Below are positions 5,045 through 60,819 of a DNA stretch of 64,000 nucleotides, piece after piece. This DNA is from Candidatus Pacearchaeota archaeon (GTDB lineage Archaea; Nanobdellota; Nanobdellia; Pacearchaeales; GW2011-AR1). The stretch spans positions 60 to 64,059 of the forward strand of contig JAGVWS010000033.1 in assembly GCA_018304165.1 (NCBI GenBank). The letters are read 5' to 3'. Every line of letters begins with the position of its first letter. Positions within the stretch are counted from its first letter, which is position 1. The notes below the pieces were generated by a model. It saw only the letters and a list, made by a program, of their open reading frames with translations. It searched no databases and was not told the origin of the DNA. Both the position numbers and the translations under genes were made by a program.

Positions 5045-5046
5045 TT

Positions 5047-5298
5047 TTATTTCAGCCATCTTGTCAAGAATATTATTCCCACTACTCCCAATACTGTAAT
5101 TATTAACGCTGCCACAATATCAACTTCATAGCTTATCGTGCTGTTAACTATTTTTTCTGATAAAGCCTGGAAGAATCTCAGCAATGGCTGCTTCCATGCA
5201 TAAGCTATTAAAAACCCTATTGCTGCAGTTATCCCATACCTTAATTGCCTCTTAAATTCCTTCTTAAAAATCCCGCGCTTCCTCTTTCTCTTGGGCAT
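5047..5298 (-). CDS. Small basic membrane protein (two TM helices)
   Basis: Hydrophobic segments flanked by a lysine/arginine-rich N-terminus; no family recognised. Confidence 0.3.
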   Translation of the reverse strand: MPKRKRKRGIFKKEFKRQLRYGITAAIGFLIAYAWKQPLLRFFQALSEKIVNSTISYEVDIVAALIITVLGVVGIIFLTRWLK

Positions 5299-5373
5299 GA
5301 AAATGACAATATCTTCCTATTTATAAGTTTATAGAAGAGGATTTATCGTCAGAACGCATAGAAAGTATTATTT

Positions 5374-5766: not shown

Positions 5767-6969
5767 ATGATTGAATTGTTTTTAGCTTTCTTTGTTGGCA
5801 TTATTATCGGAATTATTACGGGACTTATTCCGGGATTGCATATTAATCTTGTTGGAAGCATAATTCTTTCTTATCCCGTTCTTTCTTTTGCTGACGGATT
5901 GAGCATTGCGGTCTTTGTTTCCTCCCTTTCCATAACTCACACCTTTCTTGATTTGATTCCCGGAGTTTTTCTCGGCACTCCTAACGACGATAGTGGCTTA
6001 TCCGTTCTTCCGGGCCATCGCCTATTGCTCGTGGGAAGGGGCTTTGATGCTATTGTTCACGCCATGAGGGGCGGGCTTATAGGACTCATAGCATTAGTAC
6101 TACTGCTTCCGGTCATCATCTTAGTCATGCCAAAAATTTATAATTACCTGTTAAATGTCGTCTGGATAATCCTTATTCTCGCTTCTCTATATCTTATTCT
6201 TTCCCAAAGCTCTAAAGTCCTTGCCCTCTTCATATTCCTGCTCTCAGGTTTCCTTGGAGCAGGCACACTCGGTTTGTCTGTTAATCAATCTCTTCTCCCG
6301 CTTCTTTCAGGATTATTCGGGGCTTCCACTATTATCGGCAGCTTGTTGGACAGGAGCGCTATTCCAAAGCAGATTGCCAGCCATATCAATGCGTGGAAAC
6401 TGGGTTTTAAAGAATCTCTTTCCACTTTTAAAACAATTATTATTTCCTCTCCAATTCCTGCCTTCATGCCCGGAATGGGCTCCAGCCAGGCAGTGATTAT
6501 CGGCTCTTCAATGATTGACGATCATAAAAATCCTAAGGGCTTCCTCTCTTTGATTGGAGGAACTAATGTTCTTGTCATGGGCCTTTCTTTCCTTGCCGTC
6601 TTCCTCATTGGCAAGGCCAGGACTGGTTCAGCAGCGGTTATTCTTGAGGTTTTAAAAAACATCACAGCTTATCAATTAACAATTGTGCTCATCAGTGTAA
6701 TAATTGCAGGCATTATCTCCTTCGCTATAGGGATTTTCATTGCCAAGAGGCTCTCCAAGATTATCGGCAGCATTAATTACTCTTACTTATCAATTGCTAT
6801 ACTGCTAATAATTACTGCATTTGTAATTATTTTTTCAGGATTTGTGGGATTATTAGTTTTCATAACTTCCGCCTGTCTTGGTTTATTATGCATGTCTCTA
6901 GATATCAGAAGAACAACCCTCATGGGCGCTTTAATACTTCCGACGATTTGGCTGTACTGGCCGTTTTAA
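5767..6969 (+). CDS. Polytopic membrane protein, TctA/DUF112-like transporter family
   Basis: Multiple TM helices with LIPGL/LIPGVFLG motifs reminiscent of TctA-family permeases. The start region is tandemly triplicated upstream. Confidence 0.4.
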   Translation: MIELFLAFFVGIIIGIITGLIPGLHINLVGSIILSYPVLSFADGLSIAVFVSSLSITHTFLDLIPGVFLGTPNDDSGLSVLPGHRLLLVGRGFDAIVHAMRGGLIGLIALVLLLPVIILVMPKIYNYLLNVVWIILILASLYLILSQSSKVLALFIFLLSGFLGAGTLGLSVNQSLLPLLSGLFGASTIIGSLLDRSAIPKQIASHINAWKLGFKESLSTFKTIIISSPIPAFMPGMGSSQAVIIGSSMIDDHKNPKGFLSLIGGTNVLVMGLSFLAVFLIGKARTGSAAVILEVLKNITAYQLTIVLISVIIAGIISFAIGIFIAKRLSKIIGSINYSYLSIAILLIITAFVIIFSGFVGLLVFITSACLGLLCMSLDIRRTTLMGALILPTIWLYWPF

Positions 6970-7031
6970 ATGTCTCTTAAAACACCCGTAGATGCAACAA
7001 TGCACTACCGAAGAAGTGGTTCTTCATGAAA

Positions 7032-10000
7032 TCAGAACCATTTCTTTAACTCAACCTGCTTATCCTTTTCTTTCCCAAATATGCTCTCAATATAACTCTT
7101 GGCCAAAAAAAGGCTCTGCCTGATATAGGGAGAAACATTGTACTTTGTCGCCAATTCAAGAGCCGGCTCAAGGTATTTTACAATGCTTCCATGAGAAACA
7201 GTAAATATGATCCTCCCCCCGCATTTCAGGCACTTTCCAACCAGGGGCGGCCTCCTGTAAATCTCGTTGCATCCAACGCACCTAAATGTCTGCTGTGAAA
7301 ACTTTCTTAAATTTCCCCTTATGTCTCTTATAAAGTGCCTTTCAATTATCAACCTTGCAACGTCTGATTCATCAACAGCCCTTATTTTCTTGTCTAATTC
7401 CATTTGCTTGTTTACTTTATCACGCATCGTCGGAAGGAATTTATAGGAAGAATTCAAAAGGCCCTTGTTGATATCGTCTGTTTCATGAGTATATCCTATA
7501 TTTGAAAATGCATCTTCTCCTTTTTTTAGGACATCCCTGATAGTCTTCACCTGCACTTCCGAAGAGTGTGCGCCCTTCTCTGAAAGTTCATATAACTGCA
7601 GGGGATATTCCATACCTACTTCAAAATCAAGAATCTGCTCATCAACTTCTCCTGCTCTCAGCCTGGAATTAAGGACAAGAGGCGCATCCTGCGTCCCTCC
7701 GCGATGCGCCGGAAGAAATTCTCTTGAGAAATTCAAAAGGACGTCAAGAAGCAGCATGACCGCGGCTTCATCGCCGTCGCATTGGCGTGTAAGAATTCCA
7801 TTAGCTAACACTACATGATTCTCTACATTTAAACAATAAGTTATTTGTTCCTTTTCGGCAGAAATTTCAATTATTGGATCATAAATAAAATTAGTATCTT
7901 GTTTAAGCCCCATATCCTTGCCGCCTTTTTTGTTTATATCATTGATTGCTATATCATTTATTTTAGAAAAGCTTTCCAAGAAATTAACTCTACAATTATT
8001 CCTATTAAAGAGGGGTCTTAGTCTTGGTAAAATTAAAAGATCTCCGATTTTCAGACCAGATGCAAATGCTGTTTTAATTGTATTCTCTTTAACTAAAAAT
8101 TTATGATTTTCTGTGGTAGTAATCTCTTTTCCTGTTGCAGTTTTTATTTTAATTGTTCTACTGGGAGAATGTTTAGTAAAGTTGTTAATACTAACTATTG
8201 ATAGATTATTTTCATTATCAAATCCAACAGTTTTATAATTTTCTACTTTTATCTCTTTAGTCCCATAATTATCAACAATATTTATTGGATTTAATTTTTC
8301 AACTAATTCTCCGATTTTTATATTATTCCATTGTTGACCATTATAAATTGGAAGCTTGGTATTATAATCAAAACAGTCCCTCCTCATAGCCGCATGTATA
8401 AACGGAGACGCAAGCAATCCCTGAGTCTTGCTGAATCCAATTATTCTTCCCAAAACCCCTGCGCAGTTGTGTGGAGACATGCAGGCGACCAGCTGCCCGA
8501 CAAGCTGGTCCTTCCTTTCAATATTATAAAAGGGCTTTGCTCCATACATTTTAACAAGAAGTTCGTCAATAAATCCGGCTATGTTCAGGAATACCTCTTC
8601 GGACTTCTCATCTTTTGACTCCGGACACGATGGAAGGATTATATCATGCGGTTTTATCTCCAGAATTTGCTCATCACTTGTTAATTCCTTGCCGCAAATA
8701 TCCTTTTCATAACCCATCTCCTTAAGCCTCTTGCTGCTCACTCCAATCTCTTTCGGCTTGAAGTGGGTTACTGGAAGCTCGGTAGCATCATACCTCACAG
8801 TTCCATCTTTATTCACACTAAGATTGTGCTTTGCTCTCAATATTCCTTTAGCCAGATTTTCCATAGAGTGGTTCTTATTGCTCGTTCCCCTGACTCCTTT
8901 TATTAAATGGGGGATATCCTTGCCAGACATTCCTAATTTTTTTGCTGCAGCTGCAAGATAGTTCGTGCTGTCAATTCTCCTGTTCAAATAAGAAGTAATA
9001 TTATTATGCCCTTCCTTGCCGCACTTCTTGGAGTAAATAATCTCCCTGCAGTCGCGGCAGTAATGCCTCTGCTCCGTATTTTTATCACAGCCCTCGCATC
9101 TTGCATAAATAGTATCCCTCCTGCAATTATTGCAGTAGTAAATTGGAAAATCCCCTTTTATAGTTCCTTTCTCGCTGGCCTCATTCACGCTTCTGAACCT
9201 TCCCCCCTCCTCTCCGACAGGAAAGAGAACGCTTGGGCTTCCAACCAGCTTCCTGAGCTTTGCCTTCTCTGGCCTCCCCATCCTGGCCCCTATAAAAGTC
9301 CCTGCCCTGTCTTTTATTGGCACAAATGCCAGTTTGTTAATTATATCCAAAACCTGCATGGAAGGATTTACTTTCAGCTTGAGATGTGCTATATCCTCTT
9401 TAAGAGAATATTGGTTATTTTCAAGAATATCCTGTAAAATTCCGAGATTATAAAGCAATGCCTTGCTCTCCTCTTCCTTAAGCACAACATTCTCCGTGGC
9501 AACTTCATGTGGCACGCCAAGCAATTCCAGCGCCCTCTTGCCTTCGGCAAACTGCTGTTTCTGCGGAAGGGAATAAGGAAGTATGATCTTCTTTTCTATA
9601 TAACTGTTTTCAAGCCAATAAAGCAAAGAGCAAAATAAACTGTAATCAATCTGCGTCCAATAATAAATATACTTTGGATGAAGCGGGATATTATACTCTT
9701 CACTCATCTTTGCCGCTTCATCAAAAGACACTTTGGAGGAGTCTATGTTCAGGGCAGGAACAGCTTTCTTTGCTTCAAGAGCCCACCATTCTTCGACATA
9801 CCCCTGCTTTAGAAGAGGCTGATTTCTATTCAATACATCTCCAAAAGAAAAGAGAATGTCTCCAAGATAAATAATCTCTTCAACATCCTTATAGCAGTTC
9901 TTTGCCTCTTCAATATTATTCACTCTCCTTACACTACCATTATACAATTTAACAATGGGCCCCTCAATGCTGTCGCAAACAGTAACAGCACATCCTTTAA

Positions 10001-11096
10001 TTGGCTTTTCTACTTTGAGTTGGGTTCCTATGGATATAAATCCTGCCGCAATCGCCATGGTAGCAGGATGTATTGAAGCTGCCGAAAACCCTCCAAACCG
10101 GCTCCTCCCGTACCTGAACCTAAAAGAACCTGATGCAGAAGGATGCCCGAATATCGGCCTCCCTGCAACCAGATCTTTAATATATGTGGGCGACAATTCT
10201 TTCTTTCCCTCATCTCTCTTCCTGTGAAGAGAAGTATACTCTTCAAGAAATTCCCACTCAGAAATTTTAAATCCACTCTTCTGAAGCTTTCTCAAAATCC
10301 TCAGGCCTTTCTGGGCCTTTTGCGCCAGCCCCTCTCCCAGAATCAGGCAGAAGCCACCCCTTATAAAATTAGTCTCCACTCTCTTAAGATCCTTGTAATT
10401 TGAAACTTCCCTGTCTTCTGTAGGCTCCCCGGAAACCTGGATTGGAAGATGCCTTGCCAAAAACTCCGCTTCTTCTTCAGTAGGCAGGTATTGTAAATTA
10501 GTAATCCTTTCATGATAATCATAAATCTCTGCTATTGTTCTCTTGATTTCTCTTTCTGTCGGCTTGTACTTTGCATATCCAAATGCCTCCCTGAGGTAAT
10601 CAATTAATATCAGCACTACGCAGGATGCTGTTGTTCCGGCGCTTCTTATTGGTCCTGAAAAGTAGGGCACAAAGTACTCTCCGCCGTCCTCATTCTTGTT
10701 AGTCTTTAATGCAGTATACCCCTCTATGGGGCTGCTTACCACTCCAAGCGTGCTATACGCGAAGCCTATTCTTATTCCTGCATCTATTGCTTCTAACTGG
10801 CTGCTAAAAGAACAAAATTTCTGCCTTGCGATTTCCTCAGCTATCTTAAAAGAAATTTCTGGCGCTAATTGCCCATACTCCTTCTCAAGCTCCATTATTC
10901 TGTTTACTATCTCTTGCTTGTCTATCTGGGGATAAATTGTTGAAATTAATCCAACAGCCTTAGCTGCAAGAGTAGCCGCCAGCTTAACTTCCACTTCCCC
11001 CACAGGATCATATCCTTTGGCTCTTGCTTCTCTTGCTATCTCATACAAAAGATTAACTCTGTCTTGTAACTCCGCAAAGTATTCTTCATTGCTCAT
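7032..11096 (-). CDS. polC: DNA polymerase II (PolD) large subunit DP2, containing a mini-intein
   Basis: 1354 aa with DP2 hallmark regions and Zn-finger clusters (CNNCRRD...CEGC; CVGCNEIYRRPPLVGKCLKCGG). Catalytic CDGDE motif immediately after the intein. Confidence 0.9.
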   Translation of the reverse strand: MSNEEYFAELQDRVNLLYEIAREARAKGYDPVGEVEVKLAATLAAKAVGLISTIYPQIDKQEIVNRIMELEKEYGQLAPEISFKIAEEIARQKFCSFSSQLEAIDAGIRIGFAYSTLGVVSSPIEGYTALKTNKNEDGGEYFVPYFSGPIRSAGTTASCVVLILIDYLREAFGYAKYKPTEREIKRTIAEIYDYHERITNLQYLPTEEEAEFLARHLPIQVSGEPTEDREVSNYKDLKRVETNFIRGGFCLILGEGLAQKAQKGLRILRKLQKSGFKISEWEFLEEYTSLHRKRDEGKKELSPTYIKDLVAGRPIFGHPSASGSFRFRYGRSRFGGFSAASIHPATMAIAAGFISIGTQLKVEKPIKGCAVTVCDSIEGPIVKLYNGSVRRVNNIEEAKNCYKDVEEIIYLGDILFSFGDVLNRNQPLLKQGYVEEWWALEAKKAVPALNIDSSKVSFDEAAKMSEEYNIPLHPKYIYYWTQIDYSLFCSLLYWLENSYIEKKIILPYSLPQKQQFAEGKRALELLGVPHEVATENVVLKEEESKALLYNLGILQDILENNQYSLKEDIAHLKLKVNPSMQVLDIINKLAFVPIKDRAGTFIGARMGRPEKAKLRKLVGSPSVLFPVGEEGGRFRSVNEASEKGTIKGDFPIYYCNNCRRDTIYARCEGCDKNTEQRHYCRDCREIIYSKKCGKEGHNNITSYLNRRIDSTNYLAAAAKKLGMSGKDIPHLIKGVRGTSNKNHSMENLAKGILRAKHNLSVNKDGTVRYDATELPVTHFKPKEIGVSSKRLKEMGYEKDICGKELTSDEQILEIKPHDIILPSCPESKDEKSEEVFLNIAGFIDELLVKMYGAKPFYNIERKDQLVGQLVACMSPHNCAGVLGRIIGFSKTQGLLASPFIHAAMRRDCFDYNTKLPIYNGQQWNNIKIGELVEKLNPINIVDNYGTKEIKVENYKTVGFDNENNLSIVSINNFTKHSPSRTIKIKTATGKEITTTENHKFLVKENTIKTAFASGLKIGDLLILPRLRPLFNRNNCRVNFLESFSKINDIAINDINKKGGKDMGLKQDTNFIYDPIIEISAEKEQITYCLNVENHVVLANGILTRQCDGDEAAVMLLLDVLLNFSREFLPAHRGGTQDAPLVLNSRLRAGEVDEQILDFEVGMEYPLQLYELSEKGAHSSEVQVKTIRDVLKKGEDAFSNIGYTHETDDINKGLLNSSYKFLPTMRDKVNKQMELDKKIRAVDESDVARLIIERHFIRDIRGNLRKFSQQTFRCVGCNEIYRRPPLVGKCLKCGGRIIFTVSHGSIVKYLEPALELATKYNVSPYIRQSLFLAKSYIESIFGKEKDKQVELKKWF
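7782..8375 (-). other. Mini-intein (198 aa, no homing endonuclease domain) inserted between ...HAAMRRD and CDGDEAA of DP2
   Basis: Starts with Cys (CFDYNTKL), TxxH block (TENHKFL), block F/G (YCLNVENHVVLANGILTRQ), ends in Gln followed by Cys+1. Coordinates verified codon by codon (C908=8373-8375, Q1105=7782-7784). Confidence 0.75.
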
Positions 11097-13261: not shown

Positions 13262-13400
13262 TTTGTCAAAACTATAGCTGGGAACTTTAATAGCTGAACT
13301 GTTAATCATTGACTACATACTCTGGATACCTCAATAGCTGAACTGTTAATCATTGACTACATACTCTGGATACTTTAATAGCTGAACCGTTAATCATTGA
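13262..13400. repeat. 45-bp tandem repeat x about 2.7 (aatagctgaactgttaatcattgactacatactctggatac) between cdc6 and DP1
   Basis: Direct repeats seen in sequence at 13280, 13325 and 13371. Confidence 0.7.
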
Positions 13401-13509
13401 CTATTAAGTAAAGGACATGCTATTTTGGTTAATTATTTATGTCTTTCACTATATCTCAATAATTTGAATGTACCTTGCCCGTCTGAACTTTTGAATATTA
13501 AATAAAAAA

Positions 13510-16109: not shown

Positions 16110-16154
16110 GTTATTGTTATCAAAATATAAAATAATATCTTCCTTATTTATTCA

Positions 16155-16359
16155 GTATCTCTGATACAGCTATAAATTAGCAATAAGTTCAGAAGCCTGC
16201 AGTTAATGTGAATATTATAAGATAAGCATTAATAGGCAATTTATAATACTTACCATCAGGAATAATTATACTACGTTATCGTCTCAAGATTGATTAATGT
16301 GTTCTATTTATTGATAACCCTAATTCTATTGAATATAATACTATTCATCAGAGATACTT
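16155..16359. mobile_element. MITE-like element (about 205 bp), inverted orientation relative to the copies at 53.4 kb and 60.6 kb
   Basis: Ends GTATCTCTGATACAGC... and ...CATCAGAGATACTT match the family TIR (GAGTATCTCCGAT). Length matches the other copies. Confidence 0.6.
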
Positions 16360-16400
16360 GCTACAACAAACTTTAAAAAGCAATTCTTCCAACCATCCTA

Positions 16401-17184: not shown

Positions 17185-17447
17185 AACCTGTCCTTATAGG
17201 CAGGGGTTGAAGGCTTTGTCGTTGATAAAAGGTTTATAACCAACCCTGTGCGGATGACTCTAAATATATAATAAAACATCTCAAAGCAAAGAAATCATAA
17301 GATTTCTGGCATTTAAGATTGTAAAAATAAACATATACTCAACAATCTTAATACATAAAAACTTTTCAAGTTTTTTAGCCTTGACATGTAATCAGATATA
17401 TACTAAAACATCTCAAAGTTTATAAAAAACCAATCTTATCCTTAATA

Positions 17448-19909: not shown

Positions 19910-20044
19910 TCCTCTTGCGAAAGTTGTTTTTTGTTTTTGATTAAAACTTTTGACGCAGAAAAAGATGTGTAGGAAAAGATACGTAGAAAGGGCTTGAGCT
20001 TCATATGATGCAATGATAGCTTTTACAACAGCAAAACAACTATA

Positions 20045-20142
20045 TTAATTGAGATACATTAATTGAGATACATTAATTGAGATACATTAATTGAGATACA
20101 TTAATTGAGATACATTAATTGAGATACATTAATTGAGATACA
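20045..20142. repeat. 14-bp tandem repeat x7 (ttaattgagataca)
   Basis: Perfect tandem copies seen directly, immediately upstream of the small membrane protein gene at 20174. Confidence 0.8.
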
Positions 20143-24901: not shown

Positions 24902-25235
24902 GGACGTTATAATAATTATTCGCGTCGATAAGTTACTTTGAAACCAGAAGTGATTAACTGATAACATATAAAACAATAATTAGCGTCGATAAGTTACTTT
25001 GAAACCAAGGAATCAAGGATAATTAACTAATATTAATTGATAAACTGCAAAACATAAAACGCTGCTCTAATCTGAATGTATGATTCAACACTATTGATAA
25101 ATCTCTAATAAGCTAATATCTGAATGTATGATTCAACACTATTGATAAATCTCTAATAAACTAATTTATTATTATAAGAACTATTGCGATAGATATATTA
25201 AAAATTAGTGCGGAATTTACCTAATCACCTATAGT
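24902..25235. repeat. Mosaic repeat region homologous to 55480-55735
   Basis: Both carry ataagttacYttRaaacca...aattaactgataa x2, a 47-bp direct duplicate (25071/25120), and the module TTAGTGCGGAATTTASCTAATCAC. Confidence 0.55.
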
Positions 25236-25420
25236 GAAAGACATAATTCTTTCCCTAAATAGCCAATGACAAATCAGGGAAATATTAAAGTCCTTGGCTA
25301 TAATGTTAATATTAATCAGATATTAAGTATAAGCAAGCAAAGTATAGCATCTATCCTCGTCAATAACATAGCAGCCTTATCGTATCAAAAACTCGTCTTA
25401 GTCATCAAAAATGTTAATCA

Positions 25421-25641
25421 TCAAGGATGTTAATCCTTGACTGCGCTCAAGAATTGTAAATTCTTGACGTTTTGAATGTGCTCAAGAACTAATGTTCTTG
25501 ACATTTTGAGCATACTTATAACGAGAGACCAAAATATTTCACCATGTTTTTTGTTCTCTCGAATACAGCAACAGACAAAATGGTCAAATATCTAAGTCTG
25601 TTGCCGTAAGATGCAAGCTCCAGCATCTTGATTATGCTGGC
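25421..25641. repeat. Hairpin array (GCTCAAGA-Nn-TCTTGAC units x3) followed by an inverted copy of the 1795-1940 structured element
   Basis: Units tcaaggatgttaatccttgac, tcaagaattgtaaattcttgac, tcaagaactaatgttcttgac with compensatory inner-stem changes. 25517-25606 is the reverse complement of segments of 1795-1920. Confidence 0.6.
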
Positions 25642-25959: not shown

Positions 25960-27768
25960 CTACAGCGCCAGAGATTTTTCTTCTACCATCTTTTTTATTC
26001 TTTCAGCGATTTTCTCAATCTTCATCTCTCCGATAATTTCTCCGCCTCTCAATCTTACATTAGCTGTTCCTGCTTTTTCTTCCTTCTCTCCAACAATAAG
26101 CATATAAGGAATCTTCTTGAGTTGGGCATTTCTTATTTTTTTCTGCAGAGTTTCGTTGCTTAAATCAATCTTAACTCTCAGTCCGGGAATTAATTTTTTT
26201 AATTTATTGGTTGTTTTTTCTGCTGATTTTGTGAATTTCTCGCTTATTGGCAGTATTATTGCCTGATTCGGCGAAAGCCATACTGGAAACGCTCCGGCAA
26301 AGTGCTCAAGCATAATCATCATAAACCTCTCCGGAGACCCTATAATTGCACGATGTATCATCACTGGGCGCTTTATCGTTCCGTCCCTGGCAGCATATTC
26401 CAGTCCAAAACGCTCCGGCATCACAAAATCTATTTGTATTGTAGACAACTGCCATTCTCTTCCCAGTGCGTCTGTTGCTATAAGGTCCATCTTTGGAGCA
26501 TAGAATGCTGCCTCTCCAGGACCATCAAAATATTCTATTTTATTCCTCTTCATTATTTTGACTGCCCATGCTTCCACTCTATCCCATATTTCTGGATTAC
26601 CTAAATATTTTTCAGGATGCTTTTGATCGCGCGTTGACAAACGATACTTATATTTCAGCCCAAAAGTATTTATTATTTCTTTAGTCATTGTTAAGGCTTT
26701 GTCAATTTCTTCATCCACCTGTTCTTCTGTACAGAAGATGTGGCAGTCATCCTGAGAGAATGCCCTTACCCTGGATAATCCGCTTAGCTCTCCCGGCTTT
26801 TCATCTCTGTAGAGCATGGAGAAATCTGAAAATCTCAATGGCAAATCACGGTAACTATGGGGTTCAGCAGAATATATCTGGGTATGCTGAGGACAGTTCA
26901 TGGGCTTGAGGAAGAACTCTTCATTAGAATAACTGCTTGATACTTTAAACATAGCGTCTTTATACTTGTCATAATGTCCTGATATTTTAAACAGTTTCGC
27001 CTTTGTCATCTGTGGAGTCCAGACCTGCGTATAATCCTGCGCAGACTGGACAGATTCTACATAATTATTAACTGCAATCCTGACGAAAGCACCGTCGGGA
27101 GTATATAACGGCAAGCCGCTTCCTACCAATTCTGAAAATGTAAACAATCCCAGCTCCTTTCCTAATTTTCTATGGTCCCTCTTTTCTGCTTCTTCAATCC
27201 TCTTCAGATGCTCATCAAGCTCTTTCTGCGTCGGAAAGCAAGTTCCGTAAATACGCGTAAGCATTTTGTTCTTCTCACTTCCCCTCCAGTATGCTCCTGC
27301 TATTTTTAATAGTTTGAATGCTGTTATATCTTTCGAAGGATTATCAACATGCCCGCCCCTGCATAAATCAGTGTAATTGCCGCTCTTGTAAAGAGTTAGT
27401 TTTTGCCCGTCCTTTGAGAATTCATCAATGAGTTCTAATTTATATTCGTTATTCTTGAATTCTTTCTTGGCTTCCGATGCAGTTACTTCCTTTCTCTGAA
27501 AACTTTTCCACGTCTTCAATATCTCCGCCATTCTGCCTTCAATCCCCGGCAGATCGCCGTCTTTTAATTCAACTTCTCCGAAATCAAAATCATAGTAAAA
27601 TCCGTTTTCTATTGGAGGCCCTATAGTTCTCTTCGCTTTTGGAAACAGCCCGATCACTGCTGCGGCAAGAAGATGAGCGCAGCTGTGTCTCAATCTGTCG
27701 AGATATTCATTTGAATATTCCTTGCTCTTTTTCCTGTCTGGCATCTCATTATATCTTATAAAGAGCAT
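25960..27768 (-). CDS. thrS: Threonyl-tRNA synthetase (class II; SAD HxxxH domain, catalytic core, anticodon-binding domain; no N-terminal TGS/editing domain)
   Basis: SCAHLLAAAV (HxxxH), class II motifs (FRLSTRDQ, HRDLPLRFSDFSMLYRDEKPGELSGLSRVRAFSQDDCHIF, GFGLEY). Confidence 0.9.
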   Translation of the reverse strand: MLFIRYNEMPDRKKSKEYSNEYLDRLRHSCAHLLAAAVIGLFPKAKRTIGPPIENGFYYDFDFGEVELKDGDLPGIEGRMAEILKTWKSFQRKEVTASEAKKEFKNNEYKLELIDEFSKDGQKLTLYKSGNYTDLCRGGHVDNPSKDITAFKLLKIAGAYWRGSEKNKMLTRIYGTCFPTQKELDEHLKRIEEAEKRDHRKLGKELGLFTFSELVGSGLPLYTPDGAFVRIAVNNYVESVQSAQDYTQVWTPQMTKAKLFKISGHYDKYKDAMFKVSSSYSNEEFFLKPMNCPQHTQIYSAEPHSYRDLPLRFSDFSMLYRDEKPGELSGLSRVRAFSQDDCHIFCTEEQVDEEIDKALTMTKEIINTFGLKYKYRLSTRDQKHPEKYLGNPEIWDRVEAWAVKIMKRNKIEYFDGPGEAAFYAPKMDLIATDALGREWQLSTIQIDFVMPERFGLEYAARDGTIKRPVMIHRAIIGSPERFMMIMLEHFAGAFPVWLSPNQAIILPISEKFTKSAEKTTNKLKKLIPGLRVKIDLSNETLQKKIRNAQLKKIPYMLIVGEKEEKAGTANVRLRGGEIIGEMKIEKIAERIKKMVEEKSLAL

Positions 27769-27788
27769 TTAAAACTTTCCTTAAGATA

Positions 27789-28054
27789 AGTATCTCCGAT
27801 GGATTGCTATTACATATTAGAAATAAGAGATATAGAATCTATTAATTAATTTTGAAACACCAGCCATCTAGTTCTTAACGATGATAAATACTGGCAAGCC
27901 ATCTAGTTCTTAACGATGATAAATACTGGCAAGCCATCTAGTTCTTAACGATGATAAATACTGGCAAGCCATCATCCAAGTTATCCTAATCTGATTTACA
28001 ATATTAATTGAGCCCTGAATCTATTACTAAGCTATATTTGTATTGGAGATACTT
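27789..28054. mobile_element. MITE-like element carrying an internal 35-bp x3 tandem array, abutting the 3' end of tRNA-Ala
   Basis: Ends AAGTATCTCCGATGG (27789) and GTATTGGAGATACTT (28040) match the family TIR. 35-bp unit ccatctagttcttaacgatgataaatactggcaag x3 at 27864-27968. Confidence 0.55.
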
Positions 28055-28060
28055 AAGATA

Positions 28061-28184: not shown

Positions 28185-29363
28185 CTAACATTCTGTTGAG
28201 GTTAGGGCTTCTTGCTTCATAGAACTTGTTTGCTCCAACGGAGTATTGACAGATTTCTCCACACAGGACAATTCCTGCCCTGCTAATTTATTTAGTATGT
28301 TTATCGCCGAGTTGTAATCTCTGTCTATGACAAAGCCACATTCAGCACACTCGTAAGTTCTCTTATATAGGGACATATCCTGAATATGTCCACATTGAGA
28401 ACAGATTTTACTTGTGTTTCTTGGGTCTATCTTAACTATCTGACAACCAGCGTTCTCAGCTTTGAAGTCCAGTAGTTGAGCAAATTTACCCCAAGAAGCA
28501 TCCATCATATTTTTAGCGTTGAAATATTTTTGTTGTGACATTTGCTTTATGTCCAAATTTTCCATAACAATTATCTTACATTCCTTTATTAATTTTGTTG
28601 TAATCTTATGCAAGAAATCTGTTCTTTGATTTGTGATTTTGAGATGAAGTTTTGATAATCTTATTCTTGCCTTTTTTCTGTTAGAACTTCCTTTCTTTTT
28701 TCTTGACAAATCTTTCTGTAGATGCTTTAACTTTGATAAATTTTGCTCCAAGATTTTGGGGTTTTCTATTTTGTTTCCTTCGCTGTCAACGAGATAATTA
28801 TTTATCCCTAAATCAATTCCCACAACTTTATTTCCGCAAATAATTTGCTTTTTCTCGTCGGTAATTATAATAGCGTACCATCTGTCGATCTCTTTCTTTA
28901 TCTGAATTTGCTTTATGTTTCCATTCACTTCCCTATGAACTTTAATTTTTATATCCCCTATTTTTGAAAGATGAAGTTTATTATCTTCCAGAGAAAAACC
29001 ACTTTGATTATAATTTATTGTCTTGAACCATCCCTTTCCTTTGAACCTCAATCTCCCAACTTTTTTATGATTTCCTTTCAAAACTTTTAATGCTGATAAA
29101 TTAGAAAATAATCTATAACATTCGTATTGAAGTGTTTTAGAATAAACTTCTCTGAATCTCGGCTCACAGATTTTTAAGTCCGGGAGAATTGCCTGAATCA
29201 TATTTCTGTCTATAACAACTTGGTCTCTTAATTCTCCGAGCATCATATTATAAGCCCGTCTACATGTATCCAAAGCAAATTCTAACTTATCAGTTTGCTC
29301 TTTGTTTGGATATAGTCTGAATTTATTTGCTAACATTTTTTGGTTCTCCCTGACTTTCAACAT
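28185..29363 (-). CDS. tnpB: TnpB (IS605 OrfB; RuvC-like RNA-guided nuclease family)
   Basis: C-terminal RuvC-III plus zinc finger region (CSQCGHIQDMSLYKRTYECAECGFVIDRDYNSAINI). Overlaps tnpA by 41 nt. Confidence 0.8.
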   Translation of the reverse strand: MLKVRENQKMLANKFRLYPNKEQTDKLEFALDTCRRAYNMMLGELRDQVVIDRNMIQAILPDLKICEPRFREVYSKTLQYECYRLFSNLSALKVLKGNHKKVGRLRFKGKGWFKTINYNQSGFSLEDNKLHLSKIGDIKIKVHREVNGNIKQIQIKKEIDRWYAIIITDEKKQIICGNKVVGIDLGINNYLVDSEGNKIENPKILEQNLSKLKHLQKDLSRKKKGSSNRKKARIRLSKLHLKITNQRTDFLHKITTKLIKECKIIVMENLDIKQMSQQKYFNAKNMMDASWGKFAQLLDFKAENAGCQIVKIDPRNTSKICSQCGHIQDMSLYKRTYECAECGFVIDRDYNSAINILNKLAGQELSCVEKSVNTPLEQTSSMKQEALTSTEC

Positions 29364-29751
29364 ATTTTTTTAGAACATCAAGAGTTACCTGTCCTGATGT
29401 TATAAGACAATAACTTCCGCTCCAAAATACATCTTTCCAAAGTTTGTCTTTTATCTTGTCTCTGAATTTGTTTCTTAATGCTTTTGAAGTTGCTGATTTC
29501 CAGTTGTTTATGAACTTTAATAAATCTGTTTGTGGCTTGGCTATAAACAAAATATGAACGTGGTCTAAATCGCTTTCTATCGCTGTTATTTTTATTCCAT
29601 AAATTTCTGCAATCTTGTGGGTTCTTGATTTTAGTTCATCAATTATCTCTGGAAAAGATAATACTTTTCTTCTGTATTTTATGCACTGAACTAAGTGATA
29701 ATTCAGTGTATATACTGAATGTGCGTTCTTATCAAATTTGTATATTCCCAT
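29323..29751 (-). CDS. tnpA: IS200-like Y1 (HuH) transposase TnpA
   Basis: HuH motif HVHILF and catalytic Tyr region (WSGSYCLITSG); 142 aa. Confidence 0.8.
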   Translation of the reverse strand: MGIYKFDKNAHSVYTLNYHLVQCIKYRRKVLSFPEIIDELKSRTHKIAEIYGIKITAIESDLDHVHILFIAKPQTDLLKFINNWKSATSKALRNKFRDKIKDKLWKDVFWSGSYCLITSGQVTLDVLKKYVESQGEPKNVSK

Positions 29752-29900: not shown

Positions 29901-30905
29901 ATGATTATATCTATACGCATGATATTGAAAAGGTTGGGAGCTTCCCTGGCCGCGCTTTGCGCGGGCTCCATTGGAGTGGGATGCGTTAGTGATGTAAATG
30001 CAATTACAAGAGAGATTGAGAGCTATGAGCGGACTAAGATAATTCTTGAGGAATTAATTGAGCACTTTGAGAGGCAGAGAGATCAGAGAGATAATACATA
30101 CTCAAATAAAGATGATTCATATCACTATGCATCTTCTGAACAGTTATCAGAGCAGCTTTCAGAACATGAGAATTCTGCACCCGTTATAGAGCCGGACAGG
30201 AGCAGCCTTTTTTACAGAATAATTCCCGGCGTGAACGCTCTGCAAAGAAGCAATACAAACAATATGAACAGATTAAACAGCAGTGCAAGCAGTATCAACA
30301 ATGCAACAATGAGTATCAACAATGCAACAATGAGTATCAACAATGCAACAAGCAGTTTGCAAAACAGCATTTTATCTGGGCATAACAATATCAGGGCCCA
30401 AAATGCCGTTGATGCAACTCTTAACAGCCTTGATGATCCAAAAAGAGATTTTGACGAGGGAGATGCTAAGCGAGTAGCCCTGACTCTTCTTACCGGCCAG
30501 GACATAGGGGCTGTCGTTGAGTGGGGTTATTCTCAGGTAGATGAAGTCAGGAGAGTAAAGAAAGAATGGCTGGAAAAGCCTCTCGAAGAATATACTGGAG
30601 TTAAATGGGGCTTCTCATTTAGCGGAGGCATTTCCGGTGAGGTTGATGCAGGGATCAGGGCAAGAAAGAAACTTAATGTCTTTGGACTTTCCGGTGAATT
30701 ATCCCTTGAATTAAAAGAACAGTCCTGGAGCGATTTTGCTTACGGAAATTCTCAAGCTTCCGCTCTTACCTCTTCTTATGCATATAGATACAGAGAACCA
30801 GTTCTTAACTCTCCACTATGGCTCATGGCTCTTAGTGATGAAGATGAATCTCCCACTATTACTCTTGCTTACACCATAAAATTCCCTTCCGGAAAAAGGC
30901 GCTGA
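29901..30905 (+). CDS. Secreted/lipoprotein-like protein of unknown function
   Basis: Signal peptide with lipobox-like GVGC; SEQLSEQLSE and NNATMSINNATMSINNAT repeats. Confidence 0.35.
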   Translation: MIISIRMILKRLGASLAALCAGSIGVGCVSDVNAITREIESYERTKIILEELIEHFERQRDQRDNTYSNKDDSYHYASSEQLSEQLSEHENSAPVIEPDRSSLFYRIIPGVNALQRSNTNNMNRLNSSASSINNATMSINNATMSINNATSSLQNSILSGHNNIRAQNAVDATLNSLDDPKRDFDEGDAKRVALTLLTGQDIGAVVEWGYSQVDEVRRVKKEWLEKPLEEYTGVKWGFSFSGGISGEVDAGIRARKKLNVFGLSGELSLELKEQSWSDFAYGNSQASALTSSYAYRYREPVLNSPLWLMALSDEDESPTITLAYTIKFPSGKRR

Positions 30906-31172
30906 TTTCTGATACAATCCCAATTTAGCAGGAAGATTTAAAGAATCAACCAATAATGTAAATCCTCTTAATAAGCACGAACAGGCATGAGCAAGCCTTT
31001 GTTAGCCTTTGTTAGCAATTACCATCGATTGAACTCGTTGATAAAGGTCATACCTAATTAATAATGGAATTATTTCTGATAGTTATATCATTCTTATGCT
31101 ACTAAAATAATTACCCATTGGAGATGCTGGCTCTTAACCAACACTTATAAAGAAGTATGCACAATCCATTGG

Positions 31173-37354: not shown

Positions 37355-37552
37355 CTACATCCTCTTTGACATCCGAGGGTAGTTTGTTTCCACACTTCCC
37401 TGCATTAAATCTCCTCTTTCCCTGGCATCCTGCATGCTCTTTACGATTGTATTGAACATCTTTTCCCCCCATACACCCTTCCCGCAGTCGTTGCAGAAGT
37501 CTATGACAGAATTCTCATCAATCTCTTTTTTGCAGTAGATGCATTTTTTCAT
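37355..37552 (-). CDS. Zinc-ribbon protein (two CxxC pairs)
   Basis: CIYCKKEI...CNDCGKGVWG. Confidence 0.4.
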   Translation of the reverse strand: MKKCIYCKKEIDENSVIDFCNDCGKGVWGEKMFNTIVKSMQDARERGDLMQGSVETNYPRMSKRM

Positions 37553-37597
37553 CTGTTCGTCTAATAGAATGCTTTTTTTAAATCTTTCTTTATTTCA

Positions 37598-37727
37598 GTA
37601 TCTTATGTGCTTAATTAGAAGTTAAACTTAAAGTATACTGCTAATGTAAATCCTATTTGTTTATTCTAATGCTCTGGCTTGTTGAACATCACGAGCCGCG
37701 GCGTATATAATTAATTATAAGAGGATT
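37598..37727. repeat. Conserved about 85-bp module shared with 2596-2680, preceded by a degenerate TIR-like end
   Basis: taatgtaaatcYtat...cttgttgaacatcacgagccgcg..gt.ta.aattaattataa is shared. Both copies lie about 130 bp upstream of minus-strand genes (2506 and 37552). Confidence 0.55.
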
Positions 37728-37798
37728 AGAATATTATATCTTATTTATTAAAGATATATTCATCTTTTAAGCAATTCTATCAGAAATGCTCAATTTCA

Positions 37799-41170: not shown

Positions 41171-41992
41171 ATGGAAATTTATAAAAGGCACAGGGGAAAT
41201 TTTGCAGTTGCTCTAGGAAAATTAGCCAGAGCTAAAACAAAGCAAGCCTTTGCAACACCTGCGCAGGGTATGCAGGAAAGAATGCGGCAGGGAATTGAAG
41301 CGGATATTTCTACAGAGGGAGCATGGTATAATGCAAGCTTTAATGAAGTTGGCGGAAGAATTCTCGGAACAAGGGCAGAATTTAATCCATTAATTGATTG
41401 CGCTGAACAGGCAGTAGAATCCACGAGAATAGGAGAGTTTTATTTAGAAGGAGTTTTAATTAATGGAAATCCTGCATCAGAAGTTCTTGCTGAAGCTGCG
41501 GAAAGAGATGCACAAAAACCAATTCATAAAAGACGGGTTGCAGATTTTGGGCAGATGAAGACCCATGATGTTCCGGCTGACTGCTTTGGAGATGATGATA
41601 CAATTGTATTTCTTGCAGAAAGCAAGGCAGGAGCGAATAAGTATGGGTCATGGTTGAGAAAAAATGCAGGAGTTAAGGAATCAAGAGTCCGTATGCAGGA
41701 TATAGATGGGAAGGATAAATCAAGAGGATTTTGGCTTGGCAGGCTTGCTGATGACGGCAGGTCTGATTTCTATTGCGACGACAGGTTCCTCGGCAATGGC
41801 GGCGGCTCTCTGTTTGGGGTATATGAAAGTGCCGAAGGCACACAAAAAATTTCTGAACAGCATGAACATGCTGAACAAAGAAGAATCATTTCTCCGAATT
41901 TGTCAGACATGCTTAAATATTCAAGGCCCTTTGTTCATTCAAGAGACTGGAAAGATTTTGAAAGAGGATTAAGGGCAAAATTTGAAAAGTGA
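41171..41992 (+). CDS. GC-rich (about 45-50% GC) protein of unknown function, probably horizontally acquired
   Basis: Composition clearly above the about 33% background. A decaying partial copy of its 3' part lies at 42330-42430. Confidence 0.45.
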   Translation: MEIYKRHRGNFAVALGKLARAKTKQAFATPAQGMQERMRQGIEADISTEGAWYNASFNEVGGRILGTRAEFNPLIDCAEQAVESTRIGEFYLEGVLINGNPASEVLAEAAERDAQKPIHKRRVADFGQMKTHDVPADCFGDDDTIVFLAESKAGANKYGSWLRKNAGVKESRVRMQDIDGKDKSRGFWLGRLADDGRSDFYCDDRFLGNGGGSLFGVYESAEGTQKISEQHEHAEQRRIISPNLSDMLKYSRPFVHSRDWKDFERGLRAKFEK

Positions 41993-42329
41993 TATTTTTT
42001 AAAGTATATCTCTGTCTAATTGAGTTCTGGCGCAGCCAGAACTACACGCCGGTTTACTAGGGCATATTTAACTTCATTTTACGCCATAAAATTCAGAAGC
42101 GACATTGAGTAGCGATGAAGAAACTAAGAGTGCGCAGAGCGAAACTGAGAAAACAAAAGTTTTCGAGGACTCAAGATGTCAAAATTAAAATAATTTTGAG
42201 CACATTCAAAAATTAACATTTTTGATGAGTGACCTTCTTGAAGTATGAAGCTTCAGTGTGCAGATTAAATTCTGCTCTGTACGGGCAAGATTCTCGGCAT
42301 GAAAGAAATTTCATGAGGTAAACTGGCTA

Positions 42330-42430
42330 CACTGTGTCTTGGCTCAACAGGCTTGCTGATGACAACAGGTCTGATTTCAATTGCAACAACAGGAACCTCG
42401 ACAATGACGACGGCTCTCTGTTTGGAATAG
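42330..42430 (+). pseudogene. Decaying partial duplicate of the 3' region of gene 41171-41992
   Basis: About 85% identity to 41727-41825; the differences are predominantly G-to-A (ggc to gac/aac). Confidence 0.6.
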
Positions 42431-43479: not shown

Positions 43480-43584
43480 AGATTTGATTTTTTGAGCCAC
43501 GAAAATTGAAAATTTTTGATGTTTAAGAAGAGTTAAAAAATCCTTATCTGATAAGCTCCATAATCAACCTAATATGTGTAATCC

Positions 43585-43752
43585 GCTCAGATTATAATAA
43601 GTTGCATGATTTGTATTAGTGATAATTAATTCTGCAAAACGCTCAGATTATAATAAGTTGCATGATTTGTATTAGTGATAATTAATTCTGCAAAACGCTC
43701 AGATTATACTATGTTGTATGATTTGTATTAGTGATAATTAATTCTGCAAAAT
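43585..43752. repeat. 56-bp tandem repeat x3
   Basis: cgctcagattataataagttgcatgatttgtattagtgataattaattctgcaaaa repeated; third copy slightly diverged. Confidence 0.8.
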
Positions 43753-48336: not shown

Positions 48337-48763
48337 TAAGGGGATTAGTAAAATTTGATAGCCATGATAATTATTAAACAAATATGTTTTACGTTATAAT
48401 TGATTATTAAACTTTGATAGCCATGATAATTATTAAACAAATCTGCAATAATCATAAAATAATGGTGCAGTTCAGAATTTGGTGAGCAGTGTAAATTCAC
48501 ACTAAGTTTTGATATAACTATTATTAATAGCTTTTATGCTCACTATAAACAACTATCTTAATATTAATTAATATGTCGGACACTTGCATGCGGCTTATGT
48601 CTGTGTTTTACAGTTATCAGTTAATTATTCTTGGTTCTAACAGTCTATCCGCATAGGTTTAGTTATAGGCAACTTGTTAAGGGCAAAACAACCTAACCTA
48701 TGCCTATAATGACAGATTCTAAGGTAACTTATTGGTCTGTTATTGCTATAATCCCCCAGAACC

Positions 48764-53422: not shown

Positions 53423-53639
53423 GAGTATCTCCGATGAATAGCATTATAGTCAATAGAAGTACAGTTATTAAGAAATAGAGCATGTTAATTAACCTTGAAA
53501 AGATGACATAGTATGATTATTATCAATGGTAAGTGCTATAAAACGCTTACTAATAATTATCAAGTCATATTCACATTAATTGTAAATTCGGGGGTTTATT
53601 GCTACTTATTACTAATTTATGGCTGTATCGGAGATACTC
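53423..53639. mobile_element. MITE-like element (217 bp) with 13-bp terminal inverted repeats GAGTATCTCCGAT
   Basis: Left GAGTATCTCCGATGAATAG and right CTGTATCGGAGATACTC (reverse complement GAGTATCTCCGATACAG). Contains the small ORF 53513-53740, which is probably spurious. Confidence 0.65.
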
Positions 53640-55479: not shown

Positions 55480-55735
55480 ATTATTAAACTTGGTGATTGA
55501 TGCAATTTAGCACCAATAAGTTACCTTAAAACCAATAATAATTAACTGATAAGCACCAATAAGTTACCTTAAAACCAATAATAATTAACTGATAAGCTGT
55601 AAAACATTAACATAAGTTGCATGCAATTATCTGACATGTAGCTAATTAATGTTAAGAATGCCGTTTATAATGAGCATAAATGCTATTGATAATAGTTATA
55701 TCAAAACTTAGTGCGGAATTTAGCTAATCACTTAA
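55480..55735. repeat. Mosaic repeat region homologous to 24902-25235 (43-bp x2 tandem, module TTAGTGCGGAATTTAGCTAATCAC)
   Basis: Shared modules seen directly; also contains a relative of the 31-bp unit of 2699-2791. Confidence 0.55.
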
Positions 55736-56535
55736 ACTTTCTCAGCAACGCAAAAAACACTCAGGCCGAAGGGGGGCCTTACTATTGTCTCGCAGAGCTT
55801 GAAAACAGGCACTAAAGAGTTATAGAGCCCAAAAGTTCCCTTGGAGTAAATTCTCTTCTTCATCAGGACATTTATTACATACCATCCAAGAGCCCCTGGA
55901 AGATTGAAGTAATGCAGTCTTTTTATCTTAAAGCCGGCTTTCTTTATTCTTTGTGATATTTCTGATGTTGTATACCTCCTAAAATGCCCACCTTCATAGT
56001 CAAGAATTGAGTAGAGAAAGCCCATTGCAGGAACAATTATCAGGAATTTTCCACCCTTCTCTAAAATCCTGTAAGCATTGTCAAAGGCGGGCTGGTCATT
56101 CTTTATGTGCTCCAAGGTGTTCATTGTAATAATTGTATCAAACTTGTATTTTTTTATAGCATCTGCAGCTTTCTTATCCGTAGCATCCATGAGAATTGAT
56201 TTTACGTTGGGCTTGCCTTTAAACCGCTCATTGAATCTTCTTATATAATCCTCGGAATAATCGAGGCCCACAAGAAGTTCTTTGTCCAGGAAGAAGGCAG
56301 ATAAATTGCCATTGCCGCAGCCAAAGTCAAGAATTCTTTTGCCGGCATACTTCCTCATCAACCCTCCTATCCATTTGTAATAATTATCCATTGTTGACAG
56401 GATATCCATATTCTCAACTAAAGTTGAGTCAAACTTTGCTATTTTCTCGTATGCTTTAAGATTTGCTTCAGGCATGACACTCTTAGGTCTTAAGGATTTA
56501 AAAGCTTTTATGGCATAGAGTGATAAATTCTTCAC
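55732..56535 (-). CDS. Class I SAM-dependent methyltransferase
   Basis: Motif I ILDFGCGNGNLS. Confidence 0.7.
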   Translation of the reverse strand: MKNLSLYAIKAFKSLRPKSVMPEANLKAYEKIAKFDSTLVENMDILSTMDNYYKWIGGLMRKYAGKRILDFGCGNGNLSAFFLDKELLVGLDYSEDYIRRFNERFKGKPNVKSILMDATDKKAADAIKKYKFDTIITMNTLEHIKNDQPAFDNAYRILEKGGKFLIIVPAMGFLYSILDYEGGHFRRYTTSEISQRIKKAGFKIKRLHYFNLPGALGWYVINVLMKKRIYSKGTFGLYNSLVPVFKLCETIVRPPFGLSVFCVAEKV

Positions 56536-56645
56536 AGAAATCAGGGAAGATTAATGATTGCTGCGAATATCTTTCACAGAAATCAGGGAAGATTAATATT
56601 TGCTGCGAATATCTTTCACAGAAATCAGGGAAGATTGATGCATGC
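56533..56645. repeat. 42-bp tandem repeat x about 2.7
   Basis: tcacagaaatcagggaagattaatgattgctgcgaatatctt repeated. Confidence 0.8.
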
Positions 56646-60558: not shown

Positions 60559-60776
60559 GAGTATCTCCGATGGATAGTTATTATAATAGCATAAGAATGA
60601 TATAGCCATTAGAGGCAATTCTATTATTAATCAGATACTATGTTTATAGTCAGTTTAATCGAGGGTAATTGCTAACAAATGCTAACCAAAGCTTAGTCAT
60701 GCCTATTAAGCGAATTTACATTATTAATTGATTCTTTAAATCTTCTTGCTAAATTGTGGCTGTATCAGAGATACGC
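60559..60776. mobile_element. MITE-like element (218 bp) with GAGTATCTCCGAT-type TIRs, directly upstream of gmd
   Basis: Left CGAGTATCTCCGATGGATAG and right CTGTATCAGAGATACGC. Internal similarity to the 53.4 kb copy (cgRgggtWattgcta). Confidence 0.65.
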
Positions 60777-60819
60777 CCATCATAATAATCTTTATATAGC
60801 TGATTCTTTAAAATAGTTC

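Follow-up and report, generated by a model that had tools for sequence, protein, structure and literature searches.

Miniature transposons of a Pacearchaeota archaeon mostly lie at a fixed distance from core promoters and are most likely mobilised by an ISH3-like insertion sequence

We analysed a 64,000-nt stretch of a contig from Candidatus Pacearchaeota, a DPANN archaeon (the window, in what follows); these and all other data used here are metagenome assemblies. Among the products of neighbouring genes are Orc1/Cdc6, the two DNA polymerase D subunits and ribosomal proteins of archaeal type, and near-identical strain contigs come from Rifle-type groundwater metagenomes. Because the host is an archaeon, we read its promoters as a transcription factor B recognition element (BRE) and a TATA box, not as sigma-70 boxes. 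In 20 of 24 motif matches in the window, the 5′ end of the TATA box lay at −28 to −30 from the first ATG, which indicates that the genes are largely leaderless, with the ATG as the transcription start. Between these genes lies a family of short repeats that an earlier reading of the sequence (the original prediction) had likened to MITEs, transposable elements of miniature size with inverted repeats. We found five full elements of 207–267 bp with 13-bp inverted ends RAGTATCTCYGAT, called copies A to E below, and two decayed elements, F and G. Their placement relative to the core promoter is the subject of this report.

The 13-mer GAGTATCTCCGAT matched the window ten times at no more than two mismatches, against about 1.0 match expected, and none of 100 shuffles reached ten. 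Nine of the ten matches are ends of repeat units; the other, at position 7487, lies inside the DNA polymerase D gene and was set aside as a chance match. The consensus of the terminal inverted repeat (TIR) is 13 bp long, N-AGTATCTCYGAT, and is perfect in copy A, in the copies L011 and L013b (copies on other metagenome contigs are given by contig handle) and in others. The MITE is typically about 205–230 bp long (205–267 bp over all copies), below the limit of roughly 500 bp for such elements, and has no coding capacity; the sole open reading frame (ORF) that gene callers placed there encodes 43 aa and lies mostly outside copy A.

Alignment bore out the three full copies with inverted 13-mers that had been predicted, namely A (53423–53639, + strand, 217 bp, perfect 13-bp TIRs GAGTATCTCCGAT), B (16153–16359, − strand, 207 bp) and C (60559–60776, + strand, 218 bp). 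Copy D (30903–31129, − strand, 227 bp), which the original prediction had missed, has decayed TIRs and was found by a repeat scan and a profile search; it is 78–80% identical to C across its full length. Two subfamilies, with 75–91% identity within each group, comprise A, B, L012 and L014 (subfamily 1) and C, D, L011, L013a, L013b and L016 (subfamily 2). Two further copies with internal tandem arrays had been proposed at 27789–28054 and 2549–2820. The first is copy E (27788–28054, + strand, 267 bp), which is complete, with both TIRs (the right one AAGTATCTCCAAT) and an array of three 35-bp units at 27862–27973. There are three such units in the window, two in contig L019 and one in L022, and because their number varies we regard the array as a secondary expansion rather than an ancestral part of the MITE. 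The second, F (2549–2876, + strand), stood only in part: its left TIR (2549–2561, GGGTATCTCCGAT) is secure and its interior has blocks in common with G, but the right half (2696–2816) is part of another dispersed repeat, a family with a 31-bp tandem array. We rejected F as a full copy; a profile search with the MITE family detected nothing past the left TIR. The degenerate end predicted at 37598 is probably a real remnant, G (37596–37798, + strand, end CAGTATCTTATG, right boundary uncertain), because its promoter distance is exactly that of the good copies and its internal sequence is shared with F.

Evidence from outside the window supports the view that the repeats are true miniature transposons, that is, non-autonomous MITEs. 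A metagenome scan with the two-ended TIR pattern returned seven more intact copies on six contigs (L011–L016), which have no other similarity to the window and come from the same groundwater metagenomes as its lineage. The scan missed L004, a contig carrying copy A, and the count is thus a lower bound. Window and metagenome contigs together hold at least 13 MITE insertions at unrelated loci. When 12 copies were aligned, perfect 5-bp duplications flanked five of them: E (AAGAT, at 27783–27787 and 28055–28059), L011 (AGGAC), L012 (GTTCA), L013b (GTTTT) and L016 (GTCTT). Four of five positions agree in C (TCATC/CCATC) and in L014, and the duplications of A, B and L013a are decayed. Each check that the original prediction had proposed (further copies at other loci, target-site duplications, empty sites and a transposase with matching ends elsewhere) favoured a mobile, non-autonomous element.

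Empty sites were seen in two related Pacearchaeota genomes (L037 and L039), which were found through homologues of threonyl-tRNA synthetase (ThrRS) with 78–81% identity and are syntenic with the window. No member of the MITE family was found in 2 × 21 kb of these genomes. The orthologous promoter of the XerA-like recombinase gene (TTATAAAG...ATG) lacks copy D, and that of the ThrRS gene (GAAGGAAAGC-TTTATATG) lacks copy E; both promoters are conserved, and the gap falls precisely at the positions of D and E in the window. The site of B in L039 could not be used as an empty site, as the neighbouring gene is not orthologous. In a collection of species-representative genomes, the two-ended TIR pattern gave no match; relatives of the PMT_2 protein encoded next to copy A gave no confirmed match in the same collection, from which the window's lineage is therefore missing. 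A search of viral contigs with two TIR patterns also gave no match.

The position of the copies follows a narrow rule. In 10 of the 13 MITE insertions, a TATA box lies at +13 to +17 and the ATG of an ORF at +42 to +45 from one end of the element. Outward from that end come the 5-bp duplication, a BRE-like stretch of about 9 bp that is rich in A, TTTATAAA and the ATG. The end of B at 16359 faces a TATA box at 16372–16379 and the ATG at 16401 (+42) of a gene encoding 148 aa. The left TIR of F faces a TATA box at 2528–2535 (− strand), followed by a LigT-type 2′-5′ RNA ligase gene whose ATG is at 2506 (+43). The distance is +44 in seven insertions: C, D, E, G, L013a, L013b and L016. The right end of C is followed by a TATA box at 60791–60798 and the ATG, at 60820, of gmd, which encodes an 817-aa GDP-mannose dehydratase/epimerase fusion. 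The end of D at 31129 faces a TATA box at 31145–31152 and, beyond it, the gene of the XerA-like tyrosine recombinase (integrase), which starts with the ATG at 31173; the other end of D overlaps the stop codon of a 334-aa ORF. The left end of E faces a TATA box at 27767–27774 (− strand) and the ThrRS start at 27744, which is also the NCBI start, while its right end lies 6 bp from the 3′ end of a tRNA-Ala gene. G faces a TATA box at 37574–37581 (− strand), followed by a 65-aa ORF whose ATG is at 37552. In L011 the distance is +45. At random intergenic positions in the window, a TATA box at that spacing on either side occurs with a frequency of 0.033 (binomial p ~4e-13) and a gene start at +42 to +46 with a frequency of 0.024 (binomial p ~2e-14). 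The genes downstream are unrelated to one another: the gmd fusion, the recombinase, ThrRS, the RNA ligase and proteins without assignment.

Six of about 68 ORFs in the window have a MITE directly upstream of the core promoter. The original prediction had placed copies just upstream of gmd and between the glycosyltransferase gene and arsR, and had suggested that they might supply or disrupt promoters. The placements hold: C is 44 nt upstream of gmd, and A follows the stop codon of the PMT_2-type glycosyltransferase gene at a distance of 12 bp and is 259 bp upstream of arsR, with no recognisable TATA box adjoining. Disruption was not found, as the copies stand exactly at the upstream edge of promoters whose BRE and TATA box are intact. 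Contig L013 holds a decayed MITE of about 311 bp (5007–5317, with AACATCTCCAATG ... TATCGGATACTG at its ends), and exactly 5 bp separate it from a younger, well-preserved copy (4784–5001) that sits at +44 upstream of the same promoter; the pair looks like two successive insertions measured from one promoter. A TATA-like box near L012 was discounted, as its ORF context places that copy between convergent genes.

As predicted, the window holds no transposase with matching TIRs, its resident IS200/IS605 element encoding TnpA and TnpB, and a candidate for the mobilising enzyme was found elsewhere. A Pfam search of the ORFs on MITE-bearing contigs identified DDE_Tnp_1 transposases (PF01609) in L013 and L016. 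In L016, which also holds a MITE copy, positions 6594–7977 form a candidate autonomous insertion sequence (IS) of 1384 bp with matching ends (TAGTATCTCCGAA / CAGTATCTCCGAA), a perfect TAGTT duplication and many relatives. This partner IS, 1384–1385 bp long, has two ORFs: one encodes a DUF2080 ‘transposase-associated’ protein of 51–52 aa, above cut-off in both NCBIfam and Pfam, and the other a DDE transposase of 336–349 aa (349 aa in L016). The best NCBIfam match of the L016 transposase is ISH3 (NF033541, E 1.7e-23), covering profile positions 8–296 of 298. Consistent with the ISH3 signature, the 349-aa protein carries YKKRWRIETQFR, which is Y-2-R-3-E-3-R in place of YREK. The right end of the IS is CAGT and the left end TAGT or CAGT, the duplications are 5 bp long and the flanking genes are archaeal, all of which agrees with the published definition of the family (1225–1500 bp, ends CRGT, duplications of 4–5 bp, archaeal host; PMC2266710); a relative in L071, at 1548 bp, slightly exceeds the size range. 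Because its transposase scores below the curated ISH3 cut-off, we class the partner IS, from its sequence, as a distant ISH3 member or a sister group.

The transposase has 1280 homologues, the majority on contigs as long as the IS, and at least 53 contigs carry one identical protein, which indicates that the IS is multi-copy and recently active. Further perfect duplications flank relatives in L044 (ATATC), L051 (TAAGA) and L071 (TATGG). The MITE and the IS have AGTATCTCCGA, the terminal 11–12 bases, exactly in common and make the same 5-bp duplication. These similarities suggest that the transposase of this ISH3-family IS most likely mobilises the MITE, and we infer that the enzyme actually used comes from this IS or from one closely related to it. 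A simple origin of the MITE by recent deletion from the IS copies seen was not supported, as only the termini match; the MITE is a passenger that has its ends in common with the IS. A second element on L013, an IS1634-family IS (6424–7913, 460-aa transposase), lies 20 bp from L013b and has ends (CTAATTACCTRAG) unrelated to those of the MITE. The last 40 bp of L033, a contig that extends the window, lie about 2.2 kb beyond window position 1 and are the end of the same IS1634-family element, which probably explains the assembly break there. A search of solved structures with DUF2080 gave no usable match, and the matches obtained with the transposase (ATAD2 and L-lactate oxidase) were weak, partial and to unrelated proteins, and were taken as chance.

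The IS obeys the same positional rule as the MITE and is also polar. We fetched IS loci for four transposase variants and one distant one and collapsed identical junctions. Among about 20 distinct junctions at the IS end downstream of the transposase gene, a TATA motif stands at +15 to +17 in 12, and a further 4 have a near-match, one of which is the promoter of a tRNA-Lys gene that begins at +48. The ATG of an ORF lies at +44 to +46 at eight junctions of this end, including those of enolase, eIF5A and ribosomal protein L35Ae. No TATA motif was found at any of 11 junctions of the opposite IS end. The polarity is fixed: the transposase gene points the same way as the target gene. The L071 element, from another study and with 59% transposase identity, has TTTATTAA at +15 and the ATG at +44. 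The pooled target logo reads N5, an A-rich stretch of 7 nt, NN and TTTATAAA, with A at position 11 in 18 of 22 sites. In L051, the IS sits between the TATA box and the ATG (at −13) of a leftward gene and keeps the usual TATA distance; from this case, the reference point for insertion seems to be the BRE/TATA region itself rather than the start codon.

Taken as a whole explanation, we give a probability of about three in four to the following reading: these are Pacearchaeota MITEs with an ISH3-like mobiliser that choose targets relative to the core promoter. Insertion would proceed by DDE cut-and-paste with a 5-bp staggered cut, giving the 5-bp duplications, and the transposase of the 1384–1385-bp ISH3-family IS from the same community would move the MITE in trans. 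Both elements would pick their target relative to the archaeal core promoter, cutting 5 bp about 9 bp upstream of the TATA box, just upstream of the A-rich, BRE-like tract and 42–45 nt before a leaderless start codon. BRE, TATA box and gene would be left intact, making this a ‘safe haven’ site in a very compact genome. Orientation-aware, core-promoter-guided insertion is the best reading of the junctions, and we infer that the positional bias reflects target choice rather than selection.

Several observations weigh against this explanation. The empty-versus-filled comparison suggested at the outset succeeded between species, at the XerA and ThrRS promoters of the two relatives, but showed no presence/absence polymorphism at the five window sites among near-identical strains; every contig examined was filled, and only tandem-repeat copy number varied (one, two or three units in E; one unit more or fewer in F). 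The MITE copies are old, because they are only 75–91% alike; there is no sign of very recent movement, and current MITE activity is unproven. Three copies (A, L012 and L014) lie off promoters, at the 3′ ends of genes. The MITE occurs in both orientations (7:3) and the IS in one only, which a single tethering mechanism does not explain. The exact identity of MITE and IS is limited to the terminal 11–12 bases, extending to at most 25 bp at 84%, and the transposase reaches 83.3 bits against the curated NF033541 cut-off of 225. L016 carries both IS and MITE, but none of the contigs on which the IS was found is proven to come from the window’s own genome. The sample is small, about 13 MITE and about 30 IS junctions, and because assembly has joined different loci across IS copies in many of the IS-bearing contigs, only four IS duplications could be verified.

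Some of these points would fit a different history, in which the MITEs are real but are moved by another, unseen transposase and the 11–12 shared terminal bases reflect distant common ancestry with the ISH3-like IS. The end of the similarity after about 12 bp, the age of the MITE copies beside near-identical IS copies, and the mixed MITE and fixed IS orientation would all be expected of it. We nevertheless consider it unlikely, as MITE and IS have the same terminal core, make the same 5-bp duplication and land at the same unusual position, both occur together on L016, and the only other elements seen, the IS1634-family IS of L013 and the IS200/IS605 element of the window, lack matching ends.

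Selection after insertion could in principle produce the positional rule: insertion would be random or AT-biased, and only insertions that spare genes and core promoters would persist in a compact genome. In keeping with this, the spacers before insertion were short at D (about 44 bp from stop to ATG), E (about 50 bp from tRNA end to ATG) and B (about 84 bp), and the intergenic regions of the relatives are very compact. However, the spacing is just as sharp, within +42 to +45, where the original spacer was long, at C (about 246 bp, divergent) and L013a (more than 300 bp), so that lack of room does not explain it. The random-intergenic null is essentially this model, and it gives p ~1e-13. Selection also leaves unexplained why the IS faces TATA boxes with one end only (12–16 of about 20 junctions against 0 of 11), and the L051 IS, between TATA box and ATG, is not at a harmless site and yet keeps the usual TATA distance. 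We therefore regard a survivor effect as improbable.

Two readings without transposition have very little probability. Immobile, conserved cis-regulatory palindromes (operator or activator sites upstream of promoters) would suit a fixed position just upstream of the BRE, where archaeal activators can bind, inverted 13-mers that resemble a dimer-binding site and the lack of strain-level polymorphism, but not the 5-bp direct duplications beside the ends, whose sequences are unrelated, the empty orthologous promoters in relatives, the same ends bounding a transposase-carrying IS, the unrelated housekeeping genes downstream (ThrRS, gmd, recombinase, RNA ligase) or the three copies off promoters. 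Genes for a structured non-coding RNA are just as improbable: copy A folds with z −4.1 relative to shuffles, chiefly through TIR pairing and one internal hairpin, but copy C gives −1.2 and −0.8 on its two strands, Rfam yields no match at gathering score, the interior is poorly conserved between subfamilies and there is no promoter directed into the element at a constant position.

Within the preferred reading, target choice relative to the core promoter, the fixed polarity of the IS is an argument for recognition of something asymmetric, be it the BRE side or transcription factor B (TFB). One tentative possibility, which we consider less likely than not to be correct in this form, is that the ISH3-like transposase, possibly with the 52-aa DUF2080 protein, docks on the complex of TATA-binding protein (TBP), TFB and promoter and does not read the DNA sequence. 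Integration would then occur at the upstream edge of that complex, with polarity fixed. Direct read-out of the A-rich tract and TTTATAAA by the transposase or DUF2080 fits equally well.

The partner IS is like the ISH3 family (ISH3/ISH27/ISH51 and ISHsal1 of Halobacterium; ISC1359/ISC1439 of Sulfolobus) in size, ends, 5-bp duplications, signature and archaeal host, and ISHsal1 makes 5-bp duplications (PMC7002104). It differs in its distant transposase (83 versus 225 bits), its DUF2080 ORF and its DPANN host, and also in its preference for the upstream edge of BRE/TATA, specific in position and orientation, of which none is reported in PMC2266710 or PMC7002104. A keyword search of the open literature returned no report of promoter-anchored targeting by an archaeal IS or MITE, though absence there is not proof. 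The Sulfolobus elements SM1–SM4 are archaeal MITEs of the same kind, with the TIRs of IS families and mobilisation in trans. In Halobacterium, ISH2 and the MITEHsal elements are short, non-coding MITEs with the TIRs of resident IS, family-typical duplications and mobilisation in trans, and MITEHsal2 disrupts the 5′ region of the bop gene (PMC7002104). A fixed promoter distance has not been reported for those archaeal MITEs, whereas the Pacearchaeota MITE has one.

Closer parallels in target choice come from other systems. Yeast Ty3 targets RNA polymerase III start sites through TFIIIB, which contains TBP and Brf1, homologues of archaeal TBP and TFB. Dictyostelium TRE5-A integrates about 48 bp upstream of tRNA genes, and S. 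pombe Tf1 targets RNA polymerase II promoters. The Pacearchaeota elements show the fixed distance of Ty3-like targeting, with the TATA box at +15 (range +13 to +17) and the ATG at +42 to +46. The analogy is functional only: a fixed short distance to an initiation site, a compact genome and genes that are spared. Ty3, TRE5-A and Tf1 are retroelements with integrases, and their tethering to factors is established by experiment, whereas here a DDE transposon and its MITE are found in an archaeon and any contact with a protein is hypothetical. Tn7, inserting at attTn7 through TnsD, makes a 5-bp duplication at a fixed distance and in one orientation and leaves the recognised neighbouring sequence intact. 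However, Tn7 goes to a single site in each genome, which a dedicated target selector recognises, and its transposase is a heteromer of several proteins, whereas the Pacearchaeota IS has many promoter targets and a single DDE transposase with a 52-aa protein.

The window has other features of note. The resident IS200/IS605 (28185–29751; Y1 TnpA at 29323–29751, TnpB/OrfB at 28185–29363) lies between the tRNA-Ala gene and the 334-aa gene and is absent at the syntenic position in L037 and L039. ThrRS (25960–27744, − strand) is of bacterial type, 64–69% identical to ThrRS of the candidate phyla radiation, and its sequence suggests an inter-domain transfer; a start giving 594 aa rather than the 602-aa ORF is supported by the MITE/TATA geometry and by NCBI. 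The large subunit of DNA polymerase D (7032–11096, − strand) contains an intein, seen as a Pfam Intein_splicing tag between two catalytic-domain matches. The segments 41731–41817, 42025–42335 and 42339–42425 resemble the target of a diversity-generating retroelement. An 87-bp repeat at the 3′ end of an ORF (41171–41992) differs from its downstream copy at 13 positions, and because 12 of these are adenines in the downstream copy we take them as the signature of a template and a variable repeat. Between these copies is an RT-16 RNA motif (RF03019, 69 bits); a scan of neighbouring ORFs gave no reverse transcriptase.

Nearly every longer intergenic region holds a perfect or near-perfect tandem array with units of 14–56 bp (40 rows from Tandem Repeats Finder), examples being 2699–2792, 13289–13403, 20044–20142, 27862–27973, 43584–43751, 55509–55597 and 56531–56640. 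Copy number in these arrays varies between strains that are otherwise 99.6–100% identical, and the spacers of L037 and L039 are far more compact than those of the window. A second dispersed intergenic repeat family, about 250 bp long, without obvious TIRs and often with tandem arrays of its own, occurs at 48482–48759 (− strand), 55489–55735 (+ strand), 24921–25240 (+ strand), 2696–2816 (the right half of F) and L016 442–862. A third, inverted pair (1776–1940 and 25506–25613) is 88–90% complementary, with short hairpin-forming inverted repeats in each copy (CGAGAGAAC...GTCTCTCG). A direct repeat (ATATA.TAAAACATCTCAAAG) at 17261–17287 and 17396–17425 brackets about 135 bp just ahead of the TATA box that serves the gene at 17448, and a degenerate TIR-like sequence, ATCAGATATATACT, stands at the −44 position; this arrangement may have been left by another old insertion or may be a duplicated promoter. 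One strain contig (L035, 1–1561) departs from the window within the TctA gene (window position about 6783) into unrelated sequence. Its junction has no IS or MITE end, and the contig is probably chimeric or rearranged.

As a MITE family alone these elements would be routine; their interest lies in the insertion rule. Insertion takes place with base-pair precision at the upstream edge of the archaeal core promoter, and for the IS in one orientation, in parallel with eukaryotic retrotransposons of compact genomes, which use the same ‘safe haven’ strategy. About one in ten promoters of the window has some 220 bp of foreign DNA directly upstream of the BRE. Since such an insertion leaves the core promoter in place and removes everything upstream of about −45, these promoters must be cut off from any upstream regulatory sites. 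The finding raises two questions, namely whether TBP/TFB or the BRE/TATA sequence guides the transposase, and what role the widespread DUF2080 protein has. The junctions also annotate promoters and true start codons in uncultured archaea, as for the 594-aa ThrRS. If docking on TBP–TFB is true, this system would be an archaeal DNA-transposon counterpart of Ty3/TFIIIB targeting, and its more than 1000 metagenomic relatives and their MITEs would mark active archaeal promoters.

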